The position numbers were made by a program, and so were the translations under genes. Positions 8,476 to 32,034 of a stretch of 34,663 nucleotides of DNA are shown piece after piece (the stretch's first letter is position 1; every line of letters begins with the position of its first letter). Source of the DNA: a virus. The notes under the pieces are model-generated. The model ran no database searches and had not been told where the DNA came from. It saw only the letters and a program-made list of their open reading frames with translations. The stretch is from the UHGV virus genome UHGV-0173140; one strand, 5' to 3'.

Positions 8476-8517
8476 TTAAAATAATTCTTGACGGATTGCA
8501 AACGTACGATTATGCTT
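8476..8517 (+). promoter_or_regulatory. conserved promoter copy (TTGACG 8488-8493, -10 tatgct)
   Basis: gttaaaataattcttgacggattgcaaa; opposite strand carries TTGCAA facing the portal gene. Confidence 0.5.
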
Positions 8518-10173: not shown

Positions 10174-10428
10174 TTACGATTTTTCTGACTCTTTAAGACC
10201 TAAAACGGCAATTACTTTCACAGCGATACGTTGCGCCAGGTCTAACTGTTGCTGACTTAATTTCCCGGTAGTCATCACTGCCATGATCCCACTCATTGAA
10301 CCCAACGCTTTAAAATCGTTAAATGCCGACTTCATGATCACTTCTTGACTGTGACCTTCGTCTACGATTACGTGTGCGCGTAACCCCAGACTTTCGACTA
10401 CTTTGTCTACCCCTTCATTCTTCGTCAT
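10174..10428 (-). CDS. hypothetical protein
   Basis: Track ORF; last long gene of the minus-strand operon. Confidence 0.45.
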   Translation of the reverse strand: MTKNEGVDKVVESLGLRAHVIVDEGHSQEVIMKSAFNDFKALGSMSGIMAVMTTGKLSQQQLDLAQRIAVKVIAVLGLKESEKS

Positions 10429-10918
10429 CTTCGTTTACCTTATTTTTGGCTACTTTTGGTTGCTCACGAGGATCATTCATCGGGGGCCACGGGCTGATAT
10501 TTTCACGAGTTTCCACAGGTTCAGGTTCTGTACCTAAAAACTTACTGACAAATTCACCAGCAAAATGTGAAGTGTCGCTGACATAAACATGCATCCTGTC
10601 CAAATCAGCCTGACTAATTGAATTAGGTGCAATATTAATTTTAAATTGATGGAAACCAACATACATCACATTAACAGGTCGTTCGATTGTCCCCGGTGTC
10701 GGGGGAATCACACCCAAAATCCAACAGTAATGAAAACGACCATCACCCATCGGTTCACAACCAGCGTTAAGCCAGCTTACCTTCGGATGAGGAAACATTG
10801 TTGTTGAGTCAGTGGCATCCCGACGTAATGACCACTCCACACCACCAATGTTAATAGTGCTTCGCGGTTTCATACCGTTAAACTGGGTGACACCCATACC
10901 TGCGTTAATATTCTGCAT
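10415..10918 (-). CDS. hypothetical protein
   Basis: 167-aa track ORF; acidic C-terminal tail NEDDEE. Confidence 0.45.
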   Translation of the reverse strand: MQNINAGMGVTQFNGMKPRSTINIGGVEWSLRRDATDSTTMFPHPKVSWLNAGCEPMGDGRFHYCWILGVIPPTPGTIERPVNVMYVGFHQFKINIAPNSISQADLDRMHVYVSDTSHFAGEFVSKFLGTEPEPVETRENISPWPPMNDPREQPKVAKNKVNEDDEE

Positions 10919-10934
10919 GTCGGTTTCCTGTTAG

Positions 10935-11294
10935 TTACATCTTTTTAAGTGCGTGGATACAGGCTGCAGCCAGATCTGTTAGCTCTTTTTTAATACCAGA
11001 CGTCGAACCTTCGGTTTTTTCTTCCATCAGTTCGCGATATTCCATTTCAACAATGGACATCATCCCGCCGGGCTTATCGTGGTACGACGCCCAAGTCGAA
11101 GGAGGGTTATCCATACGTGCTTTAACATGGGCCATAACTGAACCATGTTCGCTAACAGAGCTATCATGATGAAATACTCCCATCGTGTCCGGGTGATGCC
11201 CGTGGTGATAATGATGGTGGTGATGAATTTCTACATCTTCCTCTTCATCGTCATCATCGTCTTTTTTGATAACGTAATACGGTTTGTAATGCAT
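10935..11294 (-). CDS. His-rich acidic protein
   Basis: KKDDDDDEEEDVEIHHHHHYHHGHHPD...FHHD; 119 aa. Confidence 0.5.
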   Translation of the reverse strand: MHYKPYYVIKKDDDDDEEEDVEIHHHHHYHHGHHPDTMGVFHHDSSVSEHGSVMAHVKARMDNPPSTWASYHDKPGGMMSIVEMEYRELMEEKTEGSTSGIKKELTDLAAACIHALKKM

Positions 11295-11344
11295 ACTCTC
11301 ATCTCCTGTTAAAGCGCCCCGTACAGAGGCGCTTAGTTGACCAA

Positions 11345-12043
11345 TTAGCAGCAGCCAGTCGGTGGAGTTTGCGGAGTAGGCAGCTTGAAGTTAATAAGCT
11401 GATCGACCTGGTTAATTTTGCACGCCAACTGAGACGTTTGTGACAATTGAGACAACTGGAAGTCACGGGTTTGAATCTGAGATTTCAGGTCACAAATCAG
11501 AACAGCCTGAGACTGTGCGAACTGGTCACGGATCAGTGCACGAGTTGCTTCCGCTTGACGTTCAATGTTCAGGTTGGTTTCGCAGCAACACTTCTCAGCC
11601 GCTAACTGTGCCTGGAAAGAACGAGTCAGTGCCGCAGTTTCAGATGCACAGATCGCATTGGTCACAGTGTTAGTACCCTGTTGAATCTGCGTGTTCAGAC
11701 CTGCAAAACCTTGAACGTTTGCCAGCAGGTTTTGTGTGTTCTGTTGGGTCAGACCGTTATAGGTAGAAGCTGCTGAGCGTTCAACAGTCAGGTTAGTACC
11801 ATTCTGACCCTGAATGTTAGCAAGTGACGCCGCATTAATAGCCTGAAGAATAGCGTTAGTATCCAGAGAGTTCTGAACAACAACACCTTCAGCAGCACCA
11901 ATACCACGACCACCCCAACCACCGCCACCACCCCAGCCATTACCGAACCAGGAACCGATAAGACCGCCGATACCACCACCAAGTGCAGCCGCGCCAGCTT
12001 CACCGCCGAAACCGCCAGTGGGAACTAAAGTCATGTCAGACAT
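11345..12043 (-). CDS. Gly-rich / Gln-Asn-Thr-rich protein with C-terminal Cys residues
   Basis: N-terminus GGFGGEAGAAALGGGIGGLIGSWFGNGWGGGGGWGGRG; C-terminus ends TGCC; aggag SD. Confidence 0.5.
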   Translation of the reverse strand: MSDMTLVPTGGFGGEAGAAALGGGIGGLIGSWFGNGWGGGGGWGGRGIGAAEGVVVQNSLDTNAILQAINAASLANIQGQNGTNLTVERSAASTYNGLTQQNTQNLLANVQGFAGLNTQIQQGTNTVTNAICASETAALTRSFQAQLAAEKCCCETNLNIERQAEATRALIRDQFAQSQAVLICDLKSQIQTRDFQLSQLSQTSQLACKINQVDQLINFKLPTPQTPPTGCC

Positions 12044-12050
12044 GTTGAAA

Positions 12051-12101
12051 CTCCTGTGAGAGAATGTTAATTAACTGTAACCGATCGGTTACTTACAGGA
12101 G
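12051..12101 (-). promoter_or_regulatory. 5' leader stem-loop able to sequester the SD of the Gly-rich gene; contains 16-bp perfect palindrome gtaaccgatcggttac (12077-12092)
   Basis: Arms ctcctgt (12051-12057) and acaggag (12095-12101) are complementary; one arm carries the aggag SD. Confidence 0.4.
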
Positions 12102-12127
12102 TATAAACGCGTTACATTAATCTAACA

Positions 12128-12175
12128 GATAATTTACAAACATTTATAATGTAATTTGTCAAGAATTAAAAAAGA
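12128..12175 (-). promoter_or_regulatory. conserved promoter copy, minus strand (TTGACA; reverse complement of 12157-12162)
   Basis: Reverse complement reads ttttttaattcttgacaaattacat; -10 element uncertain. Confidence 0.45.
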
Positions 12176-12198
12176 AAACAGGCGGGAATAATCCCGCC
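12163..12198 (-). terminator. rho-independent terminator after terL (ggcggga-ataa-tcccgcc plus T-run on minus strand)
   Basis: Hairpin 12181-12198; minus-strand tgttttctttttt follows. Confidence 0.55.
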
Positions 12199-12205
12199 AC
12201 ACTGT

Positions 12206-13969
12206 TTAAAAAATGTCACCGTATTCAGGAGTACCAACAGGATTCACACCACCAGTAAATGGTTCTTCAACGAATTCGGTACGTTTTGGTGATAGTGCAA
12301 TAACCGCAGCATCGAAAAAGTTTGGCGACTTACTTCCATTTGGTTTTTTGTCGATCACAATCTTCCCGGCACCGTTACTGGTATATGTTGGCTGACTTAA
12401 CTCAGCTTCTAACCGTTGTGCATTTTCCAGTGACGGATCAATCAGAATGATTTCGTCCGGATCCTGTGGTTGACCTTCCACATACCATTTATAAATTCGC
12501 TGACATCGCAGACGTAACGCCCACGATGCCTGTGCTTTATAATTTGAAAAATAATCTTTGTTTGATTTACGGTCTTTGTCACCAGGTTTCGTACCACCGA
12601 TAATATCACCGCCCGGATCCACAACTTTTCCATTCGGTAACCACGGGCGCACACGGAAGCGTAAAGTATCTTTCCGGTCGTTTGCCGCTACTTTAACGCC
12701 TGTACCAACACCGTTAACTTCGTACCAGTATTCATCAACACCCAGCATATTAGCCATCGTCAACATCCCTGGTGCAGCCAGTTCAGCGCCCCTGTGGTCA
12801 AGCTGCAAATGTGTCAGGAATACACCGTGAGCAATTACCAGTGCGCTTGCGTCTTCACCACCGTCTGCGGCATCCTGTCCGGCGATACGTTGACCTGTTG
12901 GTGTAAGTAGTCCGTTAGCTTTACGCCATTCTGTGTCACGGAAAGCATCAAAAGCAGCGCGCACCCATTCAGCTTTAATCAGTACACCCTGAACAGCAGC
13001 GGCATAATCGCGGTCAACTTCCTGTGCGAAAATATGCTGTAAACCTTTTTCAGCGAACGATTGTTTTTCTCGTTTATACCATTCGTCGTCTTTAGCCGGG
13101 TGATCACGCCAGTCCAGAACCATGACACGCAATTTACCACGGGGTAATTTCTTACCCGGTTCCCATTCCAAACCAGCTTTACGATTACGATAAAAAACGT
13201 TACCAACACCGTTAACTGAACTGATGTCGATACGAACGTTGGTGTTAGCTGACAATGACGCTTCAATCAGTTCAGGACGATCTACGTGTGCCGCTTCATC
13301 CAAGAAATAGACAGACTTACGACCACCACGACCAATATTGTCACCAGCTTCACCAGTAATTGTTGCACCGTTTTCTGGGTTGATACATTTCATGTAAACC
13401 AGATGGTCTTTTTCACGCAGACCAACAGGACGTAATTCCGGTGGTAATGCGCGAATAATCTGGCGAATCTTTTCAAAAATACTATCAGGGTCGCCCAGCT
13501 TATCGACAAGCTGTTCTTTACGTGAACCCCAGCCAACTGAAGAACCAGGACGATACAGCCACGCCCACACGGACAAACCACAGGCTACCCAGGTCGCGCC
13601 ATAATCTCGCGATTTTTCCCAAAGCCCTTTTTCTTTGTCTTCAAGTGCTTCATAAACAAACTGAACCATGTCAATCTGACGTTCGAAAAGGCAGAAAGGC
13701 ATGTTGGGTGGATATTCAGTACCAACATTACGCGGGTCATAAGTAAACGCCCAGTCCAGAATGAACGCTACCGGGTTTGTTTCGTAATATTTTTTCAATA
13801 CCGGGACAATTGCCCGATCCGTGCGCATACGATTTAACAGGTTAATACGGTCAATGTAACACTGTTTGTAATCCGGTCGTGGCTGACCTTTTCGCCAGAT
13901 ACGTTCGTCATTTGCGTAGGCATCACGCCAGCGCGTGTAATTATGAACATTTCCAGTAAACTTATTCAT
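12206..13969 (-). CDS. terL: terminase large subunit
   Basis: Walker A-like KSRDYGAT, Walker B VYFLDEAAH and a C-terminal nuclease-like region; start set at MNKFTG (13969) because the longer track ORF (to 14194) would run through the plus-strand promoter at 14032. Confidence 0.8.
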   Translation of the reverse strand: MNKFTGNVHNYTRWRDAYANDERIWRKGQPRPDYKQCYIDRINLLNRMRTDRAIVPVLKKYYETNPVAFILDWAFTYDPRNVGTEYPPNMPFCLFERQIDMVQFVYEALEDKEKGLWEKSRDYGATWVACGLSVWAWLYRPGSSVGWGSRKEQLVDKLGDPDSIFEKIRQIIRALPPELRPVGLREKDHLVYMKCINPENGATITGEAGDNIGRGGRKSVYFLDEAAHVDRPELIEASLSANTNVRIDISSVNGVGNVFYRNRKAGLEWEPGKKLPRGKLRVMVLDWRDHPAKDDEWYKREKQSFAEKGLQHIFAQEVDRDYAAAVQGVLIKAEWVRAAFDAFRDTEWRKANGLLTPTGQRIAGQDAADGGEDASALVIAHGVFLTHLQLDHRGAELAAPGMLTMANMLGVDEYWYEVNGVGTGVKVAANDRKDTLRFRVRPWLPNGKVVDPGGDIIGGTKPGDKDRKSNKDYFSNYKAQASWALRLRCQRIYKWYVEGQPQDPDEIILIDPSLENAQRLEAELSQPTYTSNGAGKIVIDKKPNGSKSPNFFDAAVIALSPKRTEFVEEPFTGGVNPVGTPEYGDIF

Positions 13970-14074: not shown

Positions 14075-14303
14075 TGTTGTCATAGACAAGATACCTGACC
14101 AAGTATGTAGTAACCCGGAATTGTCCGGCTGAAGATACCGCTGATTGTCAGGCGCTACGGTGAGTATAAAGCGTAACTCACCCCACGAAATCACACACTA
14201 TGCATCATCTGGTTGGATGGTGGTTCCTGCGGGGATTGTGAAATTAGTTGCGACGGGTTGAAGAGATATCTTGTCACTAAACAAAAACAAGAGGGTCGTG
14301 AGT

Positions 14304-14990
14304 ATGAATATTGTTAACAGCTTGATGAAAGACTTACTTATTTCCGGTGGTTGGTCTGAAAGCTGTGTACAGATGTATCAACATGATTATGTAAAACCGA
14401 ATATTATTGAAACATACATTCAAGAAAACAAAAACAAGAGAGTCATGAGTATGAAAATCACTAAACAAGAACTGAAAAATTTTGGTGCATGTCAGGAAGG
14501 TTTTAAACGTTTCATCATTCAGACTAACAACACTGACGAACCTGTTGAAGTTATTAGTCTAATCGGTGGCAAAAATACCGTTTCAGACTTGTTATGGTTA
14601 GCCGGGAAAATCTTACCAAAAGAAAAAATCGTTCGGTTCGCTTGCGATTGTGCTTTGTTGAACATTGAATTAATTCGACCTTATACGAATGACTTTAATC
14701 TGATTCAGGATTTTCTTAATAACCCGTCACAAAATGCTGCTCGTGATGCTGCTGATGCTGCTCGTGCTGCTGCTGCTGATGCTGCTGATGCTGCTCGTGC
14801 TGCTGCTGTTGCTGCTGCGTATGCTGCTCGTGCTGCTGCTGTTGCTGCTGCTGCGTATGCTGCTCGTGCTGCTGATGCTGCGTATGCTGCTGCTGCTGCG
14901 TATGCTGCTCGTGCTGCTGCTGCTGCTCGTGCTGCTGCTGCTGCTCGTGCTGATATTAACAAACTGTTGGTGAAACTTTTCACTGAGTAA
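14304..14990 (+). CDS. hypothetical protein with C-terminal Ala-rich (AARxAAD/Y) low-complexity repeats
   Basis: ATG 14304 (track 14271, TTG); the leader aaaaacaagag(g/a)gtc(g/a)tgagtATG is duplicated in frame at 14430-14453; C-terminal ~70 residues encoded by GCT-rich repeats. Confidence 0.5.
   Translation: MNIVNSLMKDLLISGGWSESCVQMYQHDYVKPNIIETYIQENKNKRVMSMKITKQELKNFGACQEGFKRFIIQTNNTDEPVEVISLIGGKNTVSDLLWLAGKILPKEKIVRFACDCALLNIELIRPYTNDFNLIQDFLNNPSQNAARDAADAARAAAADAADAARAAAVAAAYAARAAAVAAAAYAARAADAAYAAAAAYAARAAAAARAAAAARADINKLLVKLFTE
14735..14952. repeat. imperfect trinucleotide-type repeat (gct gct cgt/gat/tat) about 220 bp
   Basis: Direct reading; produces open shadow frames on both strands (track ORFs 14705-15112 and 14734-14973). 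Confidence 0.8.
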
Positions 14991-24857: not shown

Positions 24858-25049
24858 TTACCAGAAAGTCGATAGCATACTGCTGACCTTCTGCAGTAAG
24901 GAAAGTGAAATAGGTTTCTTTCTGATATTCAGTTTTTGTATCGCACGTAGCGGCAAAACCGTAAGCGCGAAGTTCAGCAGCACCTGATTTAGACGGTAAA
25001 TCGCCAGAGTAAAGAGCACCACGGAAAAATAATGCATAAATAACCTCAT
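24858..25049 (-). CDS. small hydrophobic ORF downstream of promoter (uncertain)
   Basis: Only ATG-initiated frame in this gap; an overlapping frame looks more protein-like but has no start codon. Confidence 0.25.
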   Translation of the reverse strand: MRLFMHYFSVVLFTLAIYRLNQVLLNFALTVLPLRAIQKLNIRKKPISLSLLQKVSSMLSTFW

Positions 25050-25067
25050 GTGTGTTAACTGAGGCTA

Positions 25068-25110
25068 ATTATCGGGGAGGGTTGGTAATCTGTCAAGAAT
25101 TATTTTAAGG
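25068..25110 (-). promoter_or_regulatory. conserved promoter copy, minus strand (TTGACA; -10 GATAAT)
   Basis: Reverse complement reads ccttaaaataattcttgacagattaccaaccctccccgataat. Confidence 0.55.
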
Positions 25111-26610: not shown

Positions 26611-26652
26611 ACTATAGCGTACACATCTGTAATTCGTCAAGAATTATTTTAC
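26611..26652 (-). promoter_or_regulatory. conserved promoter copy, minus strand (TTGACG; -10 TATAGT)
   Basis: Reverse complement reads gtgtaaaataattcttgacgaattacagatg... Confidence 0.5.
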
Positions 26653-31992: not shown

Positions 31993-32034
31993 GTAAAATA
32001 ATTCTTGACAGATTACACAACACCTTTTAAAGTT
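31993..32034 (+). promoter_or_regulatory. conserved promoter copy (TTGACA 32005-32010, -10 taaagt)
   Basis: gtgtaaaataattcttgacagattacac; second of two tandem promoters. Confidence 0.5.

Follow-up and report, generated by a model that had tools for sequence, protein, structure and literature searches.

A conserved hairpin and a putative promoter-embedded anti-Shine–Dalgarno arm in the leader of a glycine-rich gene of 9NA-like coliphages

Introduction

In bacteriophage T4, the ribosome-binding sites (RBSs) of the genes e (lysozyme), soc, 49 and I-TevI are masked on transcripts initiated upstream, and the late promoter lies inside the 5′ arm of the masking stem (PMC3014915). In this study, we examined a leader of comparable design in the virus genome UHGV-0173140 (34,663 nucleotides (nt); this whole stretch of DNA is referred to as the window hereafter). 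The window phage is a 9NA-like (Nonanavirus/Sashavirus) coliphage, and Escherichia phage KarinMuster_Bas82 (Bas82 hereafter) shows 97.6% identity to it over the queried 1.4 kb. The leader lies on the minus strand between terL (large terminase, 14194-12206) and a gene for a glycine-rich protein (the Gly-rich gene, 12043-11345; 232 amino acids (aa); phrog_9288, function unassigned), which heads a four-gene cassette common to several siphovirus genera.

The reading that we favour, to which we give about even chances, is a composite one: a hairpin at the 5′ end of the mRNA would be combined with an anti-Shine–Dalgarno (anti-SD) arm that is embedded in the promoter and masks upstream-initiated transcripts. 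According to this reading, the cassette's own sigma-70 promoter (TATACT, 12105-12100) would start an RNA near 12093/12092 with the hairpin at its 5′ end, and the hairpin would shield this mRNA from 5′-end-dependent decay. The arm ACTCCTGT would be transcribed only on RNAs begun further upstream, either by readthrough from terL or from a ATTCTTGAC promoter at 12166. On these long RNAs, the arm would pair with ACAGGAGT and hide the SD, while the RNAs from the proximal promoter would be arm-less and open to ribosomes. This would be the logic of the four T4 genes, transferred to host-type promoters and apparently reused at four or more other promoters.

The likeness to T4 is that the stem sequesters the SD and that the -10 element of a putative promoter is in or beside its 5′ strand, so that this promoter's own transcripts would lack the arm; longer transcripts from upstream carry the inhibitory arm in T4, and the same is predicted for the window phage. 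The differences are threefold. First, the window promoters are of the sigma-70 type (TTGAC, a spacer of 17 or 18 nt and a -10 element, or TATACT), whereas those of T4 are gp55-dependent TATAAATA late promoters, and an early/late meaning is not established for the window phage. Second, the window phage repeats the design at several tandem small-gene promoters. Third, the leader examined here nests an extra conserved hairpin inside the stem. The type of mechanism is known already from T4, and it is the setting that is new.

The nested hairpin can itself be compared with described elements. PMC3997798 cites Emory, Bouvet and Belasco and Arnold et al. for the protection from 5′-end-dependent decay that a base-paired 5′ end confers in Escherichia coli, and Emory, Bouvet and Belasco for the 5′-terminal stem-loops in the 5′ untranslated regions of ompA and papA, which stabilise the mRNA. 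Like these stabilisers, the window hairpin is short, lies within 1-2 nt of a (predicted) 5′ end and precedes an A/U-rich stretch with the SD behind it, and its structure is kept over its sequence; its stem is, however, only 5-6 bp long (-5.8 kcal/mol). The T7 phi10/gene 10 leader, which starts with a stem-loop, is another example of a stabiliser. In the translational activation of phage Mu mom by Com, the activator hairpin is located upstream of an inhibitory stem that hides the SD, and adjoins it. The window hairpin likewise stands beside an SD-hiding stem, but it is nested inside this stem, and neither a Com-like protein nor evidence of a binding motif was found. The boxB hairpin of lambda nut and other antiterminator hairpins are also small promoter-proximal hairpins in phage leaders. 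However, the loops of the window type are neither conserved nor GNRA-like (GAUC, AAUC, AUAC, AGUU, UAAA and others), no convincing boxA accompanies them, and the Gly-rich cassette moves among genera with different regulators.

Results and discussion

Read 5′ to 3′ on the minus strand, the leader consists of tatACTCCTGTaa, the palindrome GTAACCGATCGGTTAC, agttaattaacattctctc, ACAGGAGT, ttcaac and the ATG of the Gly-rich gene (12043-12041). Counted from the end of terL, the elements follow one another in this order: the terL terminator (12198-12181) and its T-run, ATTCTTGACA (12166-12157), TAAATT (12136-12131), CTGTTA (12128-12123), TATACT (12105-12100), ACTCCTGT (12102-12095), two A residues, GTAACCGATCGGTTAC (12092-12077), agTTAATTAACAttctctc, ACAGGAGT (12057-12050), ttcaac and the start codon. 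A first-pass annotation, made from the letters of the sequence, had described a pairing of ctcctgt with the SD-bearing acaggag around a perfect 16-nt palindrome. This observation was confirmed, and the interpretation given with it is partly supported, as described below: ctcctgt lies at 12101-12095 and is extended by the preceding A to the 8 nt of ACTCCTGT, and acaggag lies at 12057-12051, carrying the SD core AGGAG (12055-12051) 7 nt ahead of the ATG. Between the hairpin and the SD, a TTAACA motif (12070-12065), which is conserved among the clades as TTAACA, TCAACA or TTAACG, may serve as an A/U-rich ribosome landing or enhancer region. A repeat search recovered both arms together with an extended pairing of 17 nt (82% complementary).

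RNA folding gave a stable structure. For the 65-nt segment 12108-12044, an 8-bp outer stem around the 6-bp hairpin was predicted with -17.0 kcal/mol, as compared with -7.7 ± 2.4 for the shuffled sequences (z = -3.94), and none of the 200 shuffles was as stable; the 16-nt palindrome folded alone reached -5.8 kcal/mol (z = -3.3). When both arms share one RNA, a 99% pairing of the SD is calculated, and the opening of AGGAG costs 6.8-8.2 kcal/mol, whereas on an arm-less RNA starting from A12093 or G12092 the opening cost is 3.0 kcal/mol. In these properties (99% paired, -17 kcal/mol, z = -3.9), the leader has the stable SD-sequestering stem that characterises T4 gene e. The 5′ arm (12095-12102) covers the last 3 nt of the TATACT hexamer and five of the six discriminator bases, and the transcripts of this promoter would lack the arm because of this overlap. 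The earlier proposal that the leader hairpin could occlude the RBS is supported for RNAs that contain both arms and would not apply to the transcripts predicted to begin at the gene's own promoter. On the composite reading, the translational switch proposed with it would amount to a discrimination between classes of transcripts in the style of T4 gene e, and not to a switch operated by a ligand, temperature or a protein on a single mRNA.

The outer stem was then compared among phages. Its arms are identical across the leaders of Sergei, SP069 and 9NA, which belong to the 9NA-like group, and only 6 of the 17 nt (35%) are identical between the window and Sergei in the spacer separating CTGTTA from TATACT. 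In the Hanrivervirus-like clade, an analogous stem, CTCTTTG/CAAAGAG, occupies the same register and likewise begins at base 5 of the -10 hexamer. Three compensatory pairs distinguish it from the Sashavirus stem; it has -8.9 kcal/mol, and of the 16 arms compared its arm pairs best with the SD of this leader. Outer stems also occur in the leaders L027 and L036, with other sequences. No outer stem is present in the Seuratvirus, Nonagvirus, clade T, SP-126, Segz_1 and L030 leaders, and the mask is therefore regarded as a clade-specific addition outside the conserved core. Judged from this distribution, the outer stem and the hairpin differ in history: the hairpin belongs to the cassette and the mask to certain clades.

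Such a distribution can also be explained if the inner hairpin alone is functional and the complementarity of ACTCCTGT and ACAGGAGT is a by-product, produced by chance or by the meeting of a C/T-rich discriminator with a purine-rich SD. Most of the clades with both hairpin and gene lack the outer stem, among them SP-126, which is closely related to the Hanrivervirus-like leader; 6 of the 107 genes of Bas82 have an anti-SD complement of at least 7 nt; and arms of the CCUC type form fairly good duplexes with the SDs of many genes. Nevertheless, a perfect 8-nt complement to the SD zone within the 75 nt upstream was found in only 0.3% of the leaders shuffled by a dinucleotide-type procedure (1.1% for at least 7 nt), and the Sashavirus and Hanrivervirus-like stems, which are in the same register, differ by three compensatory pairs, which would hardly be expected of a by-product. 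In SD occlusion, the Gly-rich leader ranks 7th among the 107 genes of Bas82; it is in the tail of the distribution, being unusual and not unique. Together with the results from the other promoters described below, these findings make the by-product explanation distinctly improbable.

Two other pairings were considered and rejected. A second lock, formed by CUGUUAGA (12128-12121) with codons 2-4, was equalled by 216 of 2000 shuffles and is attributable to chance. An alternative hairpin, CUGUAA/UUACAG (12098-12093 with 12080-12075), which might compete with the mask, is weak and is not kept in Sergei. Among the Rfam covariance models, none matched the window at the gathering score, and the region 11990-12230 gave only sub-threshold matches (E 0.36 to 4.1).

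The inner hairpin, GUAACC-GAUC-GGUUAC (12077-12092(-); 6 bp with a tetraloop), is much more widely distributed. Homologues of the Gly-rich gene occur in Sashavirus, Seuratvirus, Nonagvirus, Hanrivervirus-like, Segzyvirus, T5-like and other phages; the hairpin accompanies the gene in at least seven phage clades and lies 20-41 nt ahead of the ATG in all of the better-conserved clades. When 19 distinct leaders representing seven clades were aligned, 98% of the cells were paired. Three of the six pairs show compensatory two-sided changes (A-U to G-C twice, and C-G to A-U), and the one-sided changes all yield G·U or U·G pairs (GTAGCC/GGTTAC, GTAACA/TGTTGC and GTAACG/TGTTAC). As a control, the 3′ arm was slid by 1-3 columns, and the pairing fell to 24-50%. 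Clades with unrelated leaders (Segz_1, L031, L030 and L027) have a hairpin of other sequence in the same place. The pairing, the compensatory changes and the G·U variants indicate that the structure is under selection, as is the case for the 5′ stem-loop stabilisers.

These data also bear on the suggestion, made in the first-pass annotation, that the palindrome is a protein-binding operator, that is, a DNA site at +1 for a dimeric phage repressor or activator. The perfect palindrome does stand at the predicted transcription start, and its GTAAC half-sites are conserved in four genera. However, because the covariation tolerates G·U pairs, the element is considered to act as RNA and not as a DNA operator: the one-sided changes unbalance the half-sites of the DNA but keep the pairs of the RNA. 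In other clades, stems of unrelated sequence stand at this position, the GATC in the centre varies, and the cassette moves among genera that are unlikely to share a regulator. In the window, the palindrome has a single copy, and the next best match (two mismatches) is at the level predicted by chance. Overall, we consider an operator to be most improbable.

Two further roles for the hairpin were rejected. It is not an intrinsic terminator or attenuator: no U-run follows it, the sequence after the hairpin in the window being AGUUAAUUAAC, and the terminator scan omits it; in the Hanrivervirus-like clade, a T-run follows only beyond a 4-nt gap and the stem is weak. Nor does the Dam/PvuI site in the loop (GATC/CGATCG) account for it, as relatives have AATC, GATT, ATAC or AGTT there. 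Separately, an exceptional leader was observed in 9NA (L163). In this phage (1025-1213 and 970-990), a deletion has shortened the Gly-rich gene to 63 aa and fused its N-terminal part to a central position in the third gene of the cassette, and a G-to-C change disrupts the leader hairpin by a C-C mismatch (GTAGCC/GCTTAC), with the anti-SD arms still intact. The mismatch beside a truncated gene fits a relaxed selection on the hairpin, although this is a single anecdote.

The position of the hairpin relative to the promoter was examined by anchoring the leaders on the first hairpin base and scoring 15 representatives for a hexamer with A2 and T6. The distance from the end of such a hexamer (TATACT, CATACT, TATGCT, TAGAAT, TAAATT or TAGATT) to the hairpin is exactly 7 nt in 11 of the 15 leaders and 6 nt in two more, and the other offsets score 0-2. 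In the window, the hexamer is TATACT (12100-12105(-)), exactly 7 nt ahead of the hairpin; CTGTTA (12123-12128(-)), a weak -35 candidate (3/6), lies 17 nt ahead of TATACT and is kept in Sergei and 9NA. In clade T (L023, L029, L065, L075 and L078), TTGTCA, TAGAAT and the 16-nt spacing between them are invariant over five unrelated spacer sequences, a pattern that is classically diagnostic of sigma-70 promoters. The corresponding elements are TTGTAA-16-TATGCT in Seuratvirus and TTGTGA-16-TATGCT in Nonagvirus. Since transcription usually starts about 7 nt after the -10 element, the hairpin would begin at +1 or +2 of its own promoter; the usual sigma-70 distance places the predicted start in the window at A12093 or G12092, 7-8 nt after the -10 element. 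The hairpin thus probably starts at or beside +1 of the cassette's own promoter, and it would most likely act as a 5′-terminal stabiliser against 5′-end-dependent decay.

The same 7-nt spacing bears on the possibility that the multibranch structure is a processing site for RNase III or RNase E on long transcripts, whose cleavage would free a hairpin-capped, translatable mRNA. An 8-bp outer stem with an internal branch would indeed form on the readthrough RNA, and cleavage would make the hairpin 5′-proximal. However, 8 bp is short for RNase III, no Rfam match was obtained, and processing leaves the fixed distance between the -10 hexamer and the hairpin unexplained. We therefore think such a site very unlikely.

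The composite reading also calls for a source of arm-containing RNA. One candidate is the upstream promoter P_up (12157-12166(-)), which carries the family motif ATTCTTGAC(A) with the -35 element TTGACA (12162-12157). Its candidate -10 element is TAAATT (12131-12136(-)) with a 20-nt spacer, and transcripts from near 12123 would contain the anti-SD arm. At 17-18 nt from this TTGACA, no valid -10 element was found (TTGTAA and TGTAAA fail both A2 and T6), and P_up is the sole family member whose nearest valid -10 is at 20 nt instead of 17-18 nt; in Sergei, the spacer is 21 nt. The other candidate is readthrough from terL, which is co-directional with the Gly-rich gene in the window. An intrinsic-terminator hairpin lies between the two genes, 3′ of terL (12181-12198(-); GGCGGGA-TTAT-TCCCGCC, then a T-run to about 12168), and this terminator restricts readthrough into the leader and need not abolish it. 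Sergei, SP069 and 9NA are without the terminator, and readthrough is expected in them; the promoter motif follows immediately on the stop codon of terL. In Sasha, no co-directional gene lies upstream of the leader, and the anti-SD arm is still kept.

The most interesting part is the recurrence of the design at several sigma-70 promoters. The motif ATTCTTGAC has 13 exact copies in the window, and with one mismatch allowed there are 25 matches as compared with the expected 10.3 ± 3.3. The exact sites include 286-294(-), 597-605(+), 4493-4501(+), 6262-6270(+), 8484-8492(+), 15979-15987(+), 17593-17601(+), 18081-18089(+), 25092-25100(-), 26636-26644(-) and 32001-32009(+). The consensus of this promoter family is TAAAATAATTCTTGAC(R)nATT(A/G)CA, and in 12 of the 13 cases a valid -10 element (A2, T6) is located at 17-18 nt. 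The family promoters usually lie directly after the stop codon of a preceding small gene.

For 12 promoters (11 of the family and the proximal promoter of the Gly-rich gene), the pairing of the 12 nt after the -10 element with the SD zone of the downstream gene was calculated. Five of them, with -10 elements at 16006, 17620, 18109, 25073 and 12105, reach -9.5 kcal/mol or better, and the arm-SD duplexes of the four promoters other than that at 12105 range from -9.5 to -10.8 kcal/mol. These four have good -35 and -10 elements with the same arm geometry. At 17620-17663(+), the -10 element TAAATT is followed by the arm CTCACAT (17627-17633), which pairs with ATGTGAG (17644-17650) at the SD ahead of the ATG at 17661. 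At 18109-18152(+), TATAAT is followed by CCTCATT (18117-18123), which pairs, with one G·U, with AGTGAGG (18134-18140) at the SD ahead of the ATG at 18150. The first-pass annotation had pointed to anti-SD pairings ahead of these two start codons, and both are borne out (-7.6 kcal/mol, z = -3.3, and -8.0 kcal/mol, z = -2.0, respectively). At 25035-25073(-), GATAAT is combined with the arm AGCCTCA and TGAGGTT at the SD (-9.8 kcal/mol). At 16006-16046(+), the -10 element TAGACT is overlapped by the arm CTTCAGTT, which pairs with AACTGGAG at the SD. The pattern is repeated in Sergei, where the orthologue of this last promoter (P15979) shows compensatory changes: the distal stem AGTT/AACT has become AGGGT/ACCC. 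In all five cases, the arm starts at -2 to +3 relative to the end of the -10 element, upstream of the expected transcription start. These promoters are arranged in tandem, each behind a small gene and not separated by terminators, and readthrough RNA that contains the arms must therefore be made. The pairing of the arms with their own SDs exceeds that with the SDs of other genes (permutation p = 0.001); this result and the compensatory changes at P15979 speak further against a by-product.

It may be tentatively suggested that 9NA-like phages systematically place anti-SD sequences in sigma-70 discriminators, as a genome-wide "translational insulation". Each small gene would then be translated from the RNA of its own promoter only, and readthrough RNA from the promoter before it would be silent for that gene; a 5′ hairpin that travels with the Gly-rich cassette from genus to genus would be a further, portable part. 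We lean against so broad a generalisation. If the composite reading were confirmed, promoter-dependent translation would not be peculiar to the T4 late promoters, and a siphovirus would be seen to use the same trick repeatedly with host-type promoters. For annotation, reads across a gene of these phages would then not imply that the protein is made. The module (-10 element, anti-SD arm, optional 5′ hairpin and SD) is compact and of natural origin and could be reused to insulate expression from upstream transcription.

Both structures of the Gly-rich leader, the covariation of the hairpin, its fixed 7-nt spacing to the -10 element and the recurrent arms beside the -10 elements are observed features; from them we infer the translational effect and the stabilising effect. 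Several points weigh against the composite reading. The proximal -35 element is poor in the window phage (CTGTTA, 3/6) and worse in the Hanrivervirus-like clade (2/6), and the clades with a good -35 element are those without the anti-SD arm. Such an inverse relation would equally be seen if the proximal promoter had decayed and its former discriminator had become part of the transcript. The CTGTTA block doubles as the -35 element (CTAACA) of a promoter-like site on the plus strand. The conservation of TATACT within Sashavirus is largely due to its overlap with the arm, only "TAT" being independent. In the literature on these phages, no transcription-start data were found, and both the start and the activity of the proximal promoter are predictions for them. 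The abnormal spacer of P_up (20-21 nt) makes it uncertain where RNA with the arm would originate in phages that have a terminator behind terL, such as the window phage. The calculated difference of 4-5 kcal/mol suggests a moderate, several-fold repression and not an on/off control. Finally, short leaders force the arms to lie fairly near the -10 element; the chance that all five would start within 3 nt of it is roughly 3%, which is modest support.

Some of these points favour the main competing explanation, which follows the first-pass annotation: TATACT would be inactive in the window phage, and the gene's only mRNA would be occluded. All of the RNA, from P_up or terL, would then carry the arm, and translation would be constitutively low or would be unmasked by a trans-acting factor, for example, a hairpin-binding protein comparable with Com for Mu mom. 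It agrees with the weak proximal -35 elements in both of the arm-bearing clades and the strong ones in the arm-less clades, with the family promoter motif located upstream, with the stability of the masked fold and with the arm kept in Sasha, where no co-directional upstream gene exists. On the other hand, P_up alone in its family has a 20-21-nt spacer, and the 7-nt spacing from the -10 element to the hairpin has been kept. At four other promoters with good -35 and -10 elements, the arm is likewise part of the discriminator and so is left out of the transcripts that these promoters themselves start. Moreover, no candidate for an RNA-binding activator was found, the cassette proteins being without Pfam matches. 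Taking both sides together, we judge this explanation to be rather unlikely, and we retain the promoter-embedded mask combined with a 5′ hairpin as the preferred reading.

Genome setting and other features

The four genes of the cassette (10174-12043(-)) encode the Gly-rich protein of 232 aa, a His-rich protein of 119 aa, and proteins of 167 aa and 84 aa. The Gly-rich protein has a CCCETNLNIERQ motif and a C-terminal PTPPTPPTGCC, and the His-rich protein contains HHHHHYHHGHH. No Pfam match was found for the cassette proteins, and their PHROG families are without assigned functions. The labels "lateral tail fiber chaperone" and "putative sugar-binding protein" in other records are unsupported here. 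The cassette is common to Sasha-, Seurat-, Nonag-, Hanriver- and Segzy-like phages at differing genome positions, the Gly-rich gene following terL, the tail fibre gene or the coat gene, and the conserved hairpin marks this mobile unit, which is shared by many enterobacterial siphoviruses. Weaker matches to the Gly-rich gene occur in T5-like phages, and distant homologues (26-35% identity) in gut Clostridia, Treponema and other metagenome-assembled genomes.

A hairpin, GCGCC-tctgtac-GGGCGC, with a short T-run is found at 11301-11334(-), directly 3′ of the Gly-rich gene and just ahead of the SD of the next gene; it carries a terminator annotation in AVIO78A and Sergei. With this hairpin and the terL terminator, the Gly-rich gene is flanked on both sides by terminator-like elements. 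Morons, described by Hendrix and colleagues, are autonomous promoter-gene-terminator units in phage genomes. The Gly-rich gene resembles them in having a terminator before it, a putative promoter and leader of its own, a terminator-like hairpin after it and a variable genome position. It differs in occurring in virulent siphoviruses and in being the first of a four-gene cassette.

On the opposite strand of the leader region, a promoter-like site is found at 12122-12150(+) (CTAACA-17-TATAAT; 10/12 matches). It faces the terL terminator, with the Gly-rich gene behind it, and is partly kept in Sergei; the divergent upstream gene of Sasha could use such a site.

In other parts of the window, two features were observed. 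An open reading frame of 239 aa at 14271-14990(+) has a long alanine-rich repeat tail (AARAAAADAADAARAAAVAAAYAARAAA...). At 3161-3188(-), a terminator-like hairpin, GCCTCAGT...ACTGAGGC, is followed by TTTTTT; the head-morphogenesis gene has its SD within the 3′ arm of this hairpin and its ATG right after the T-run. This hairpin is a different way to couple termination with the masking of an RBS.

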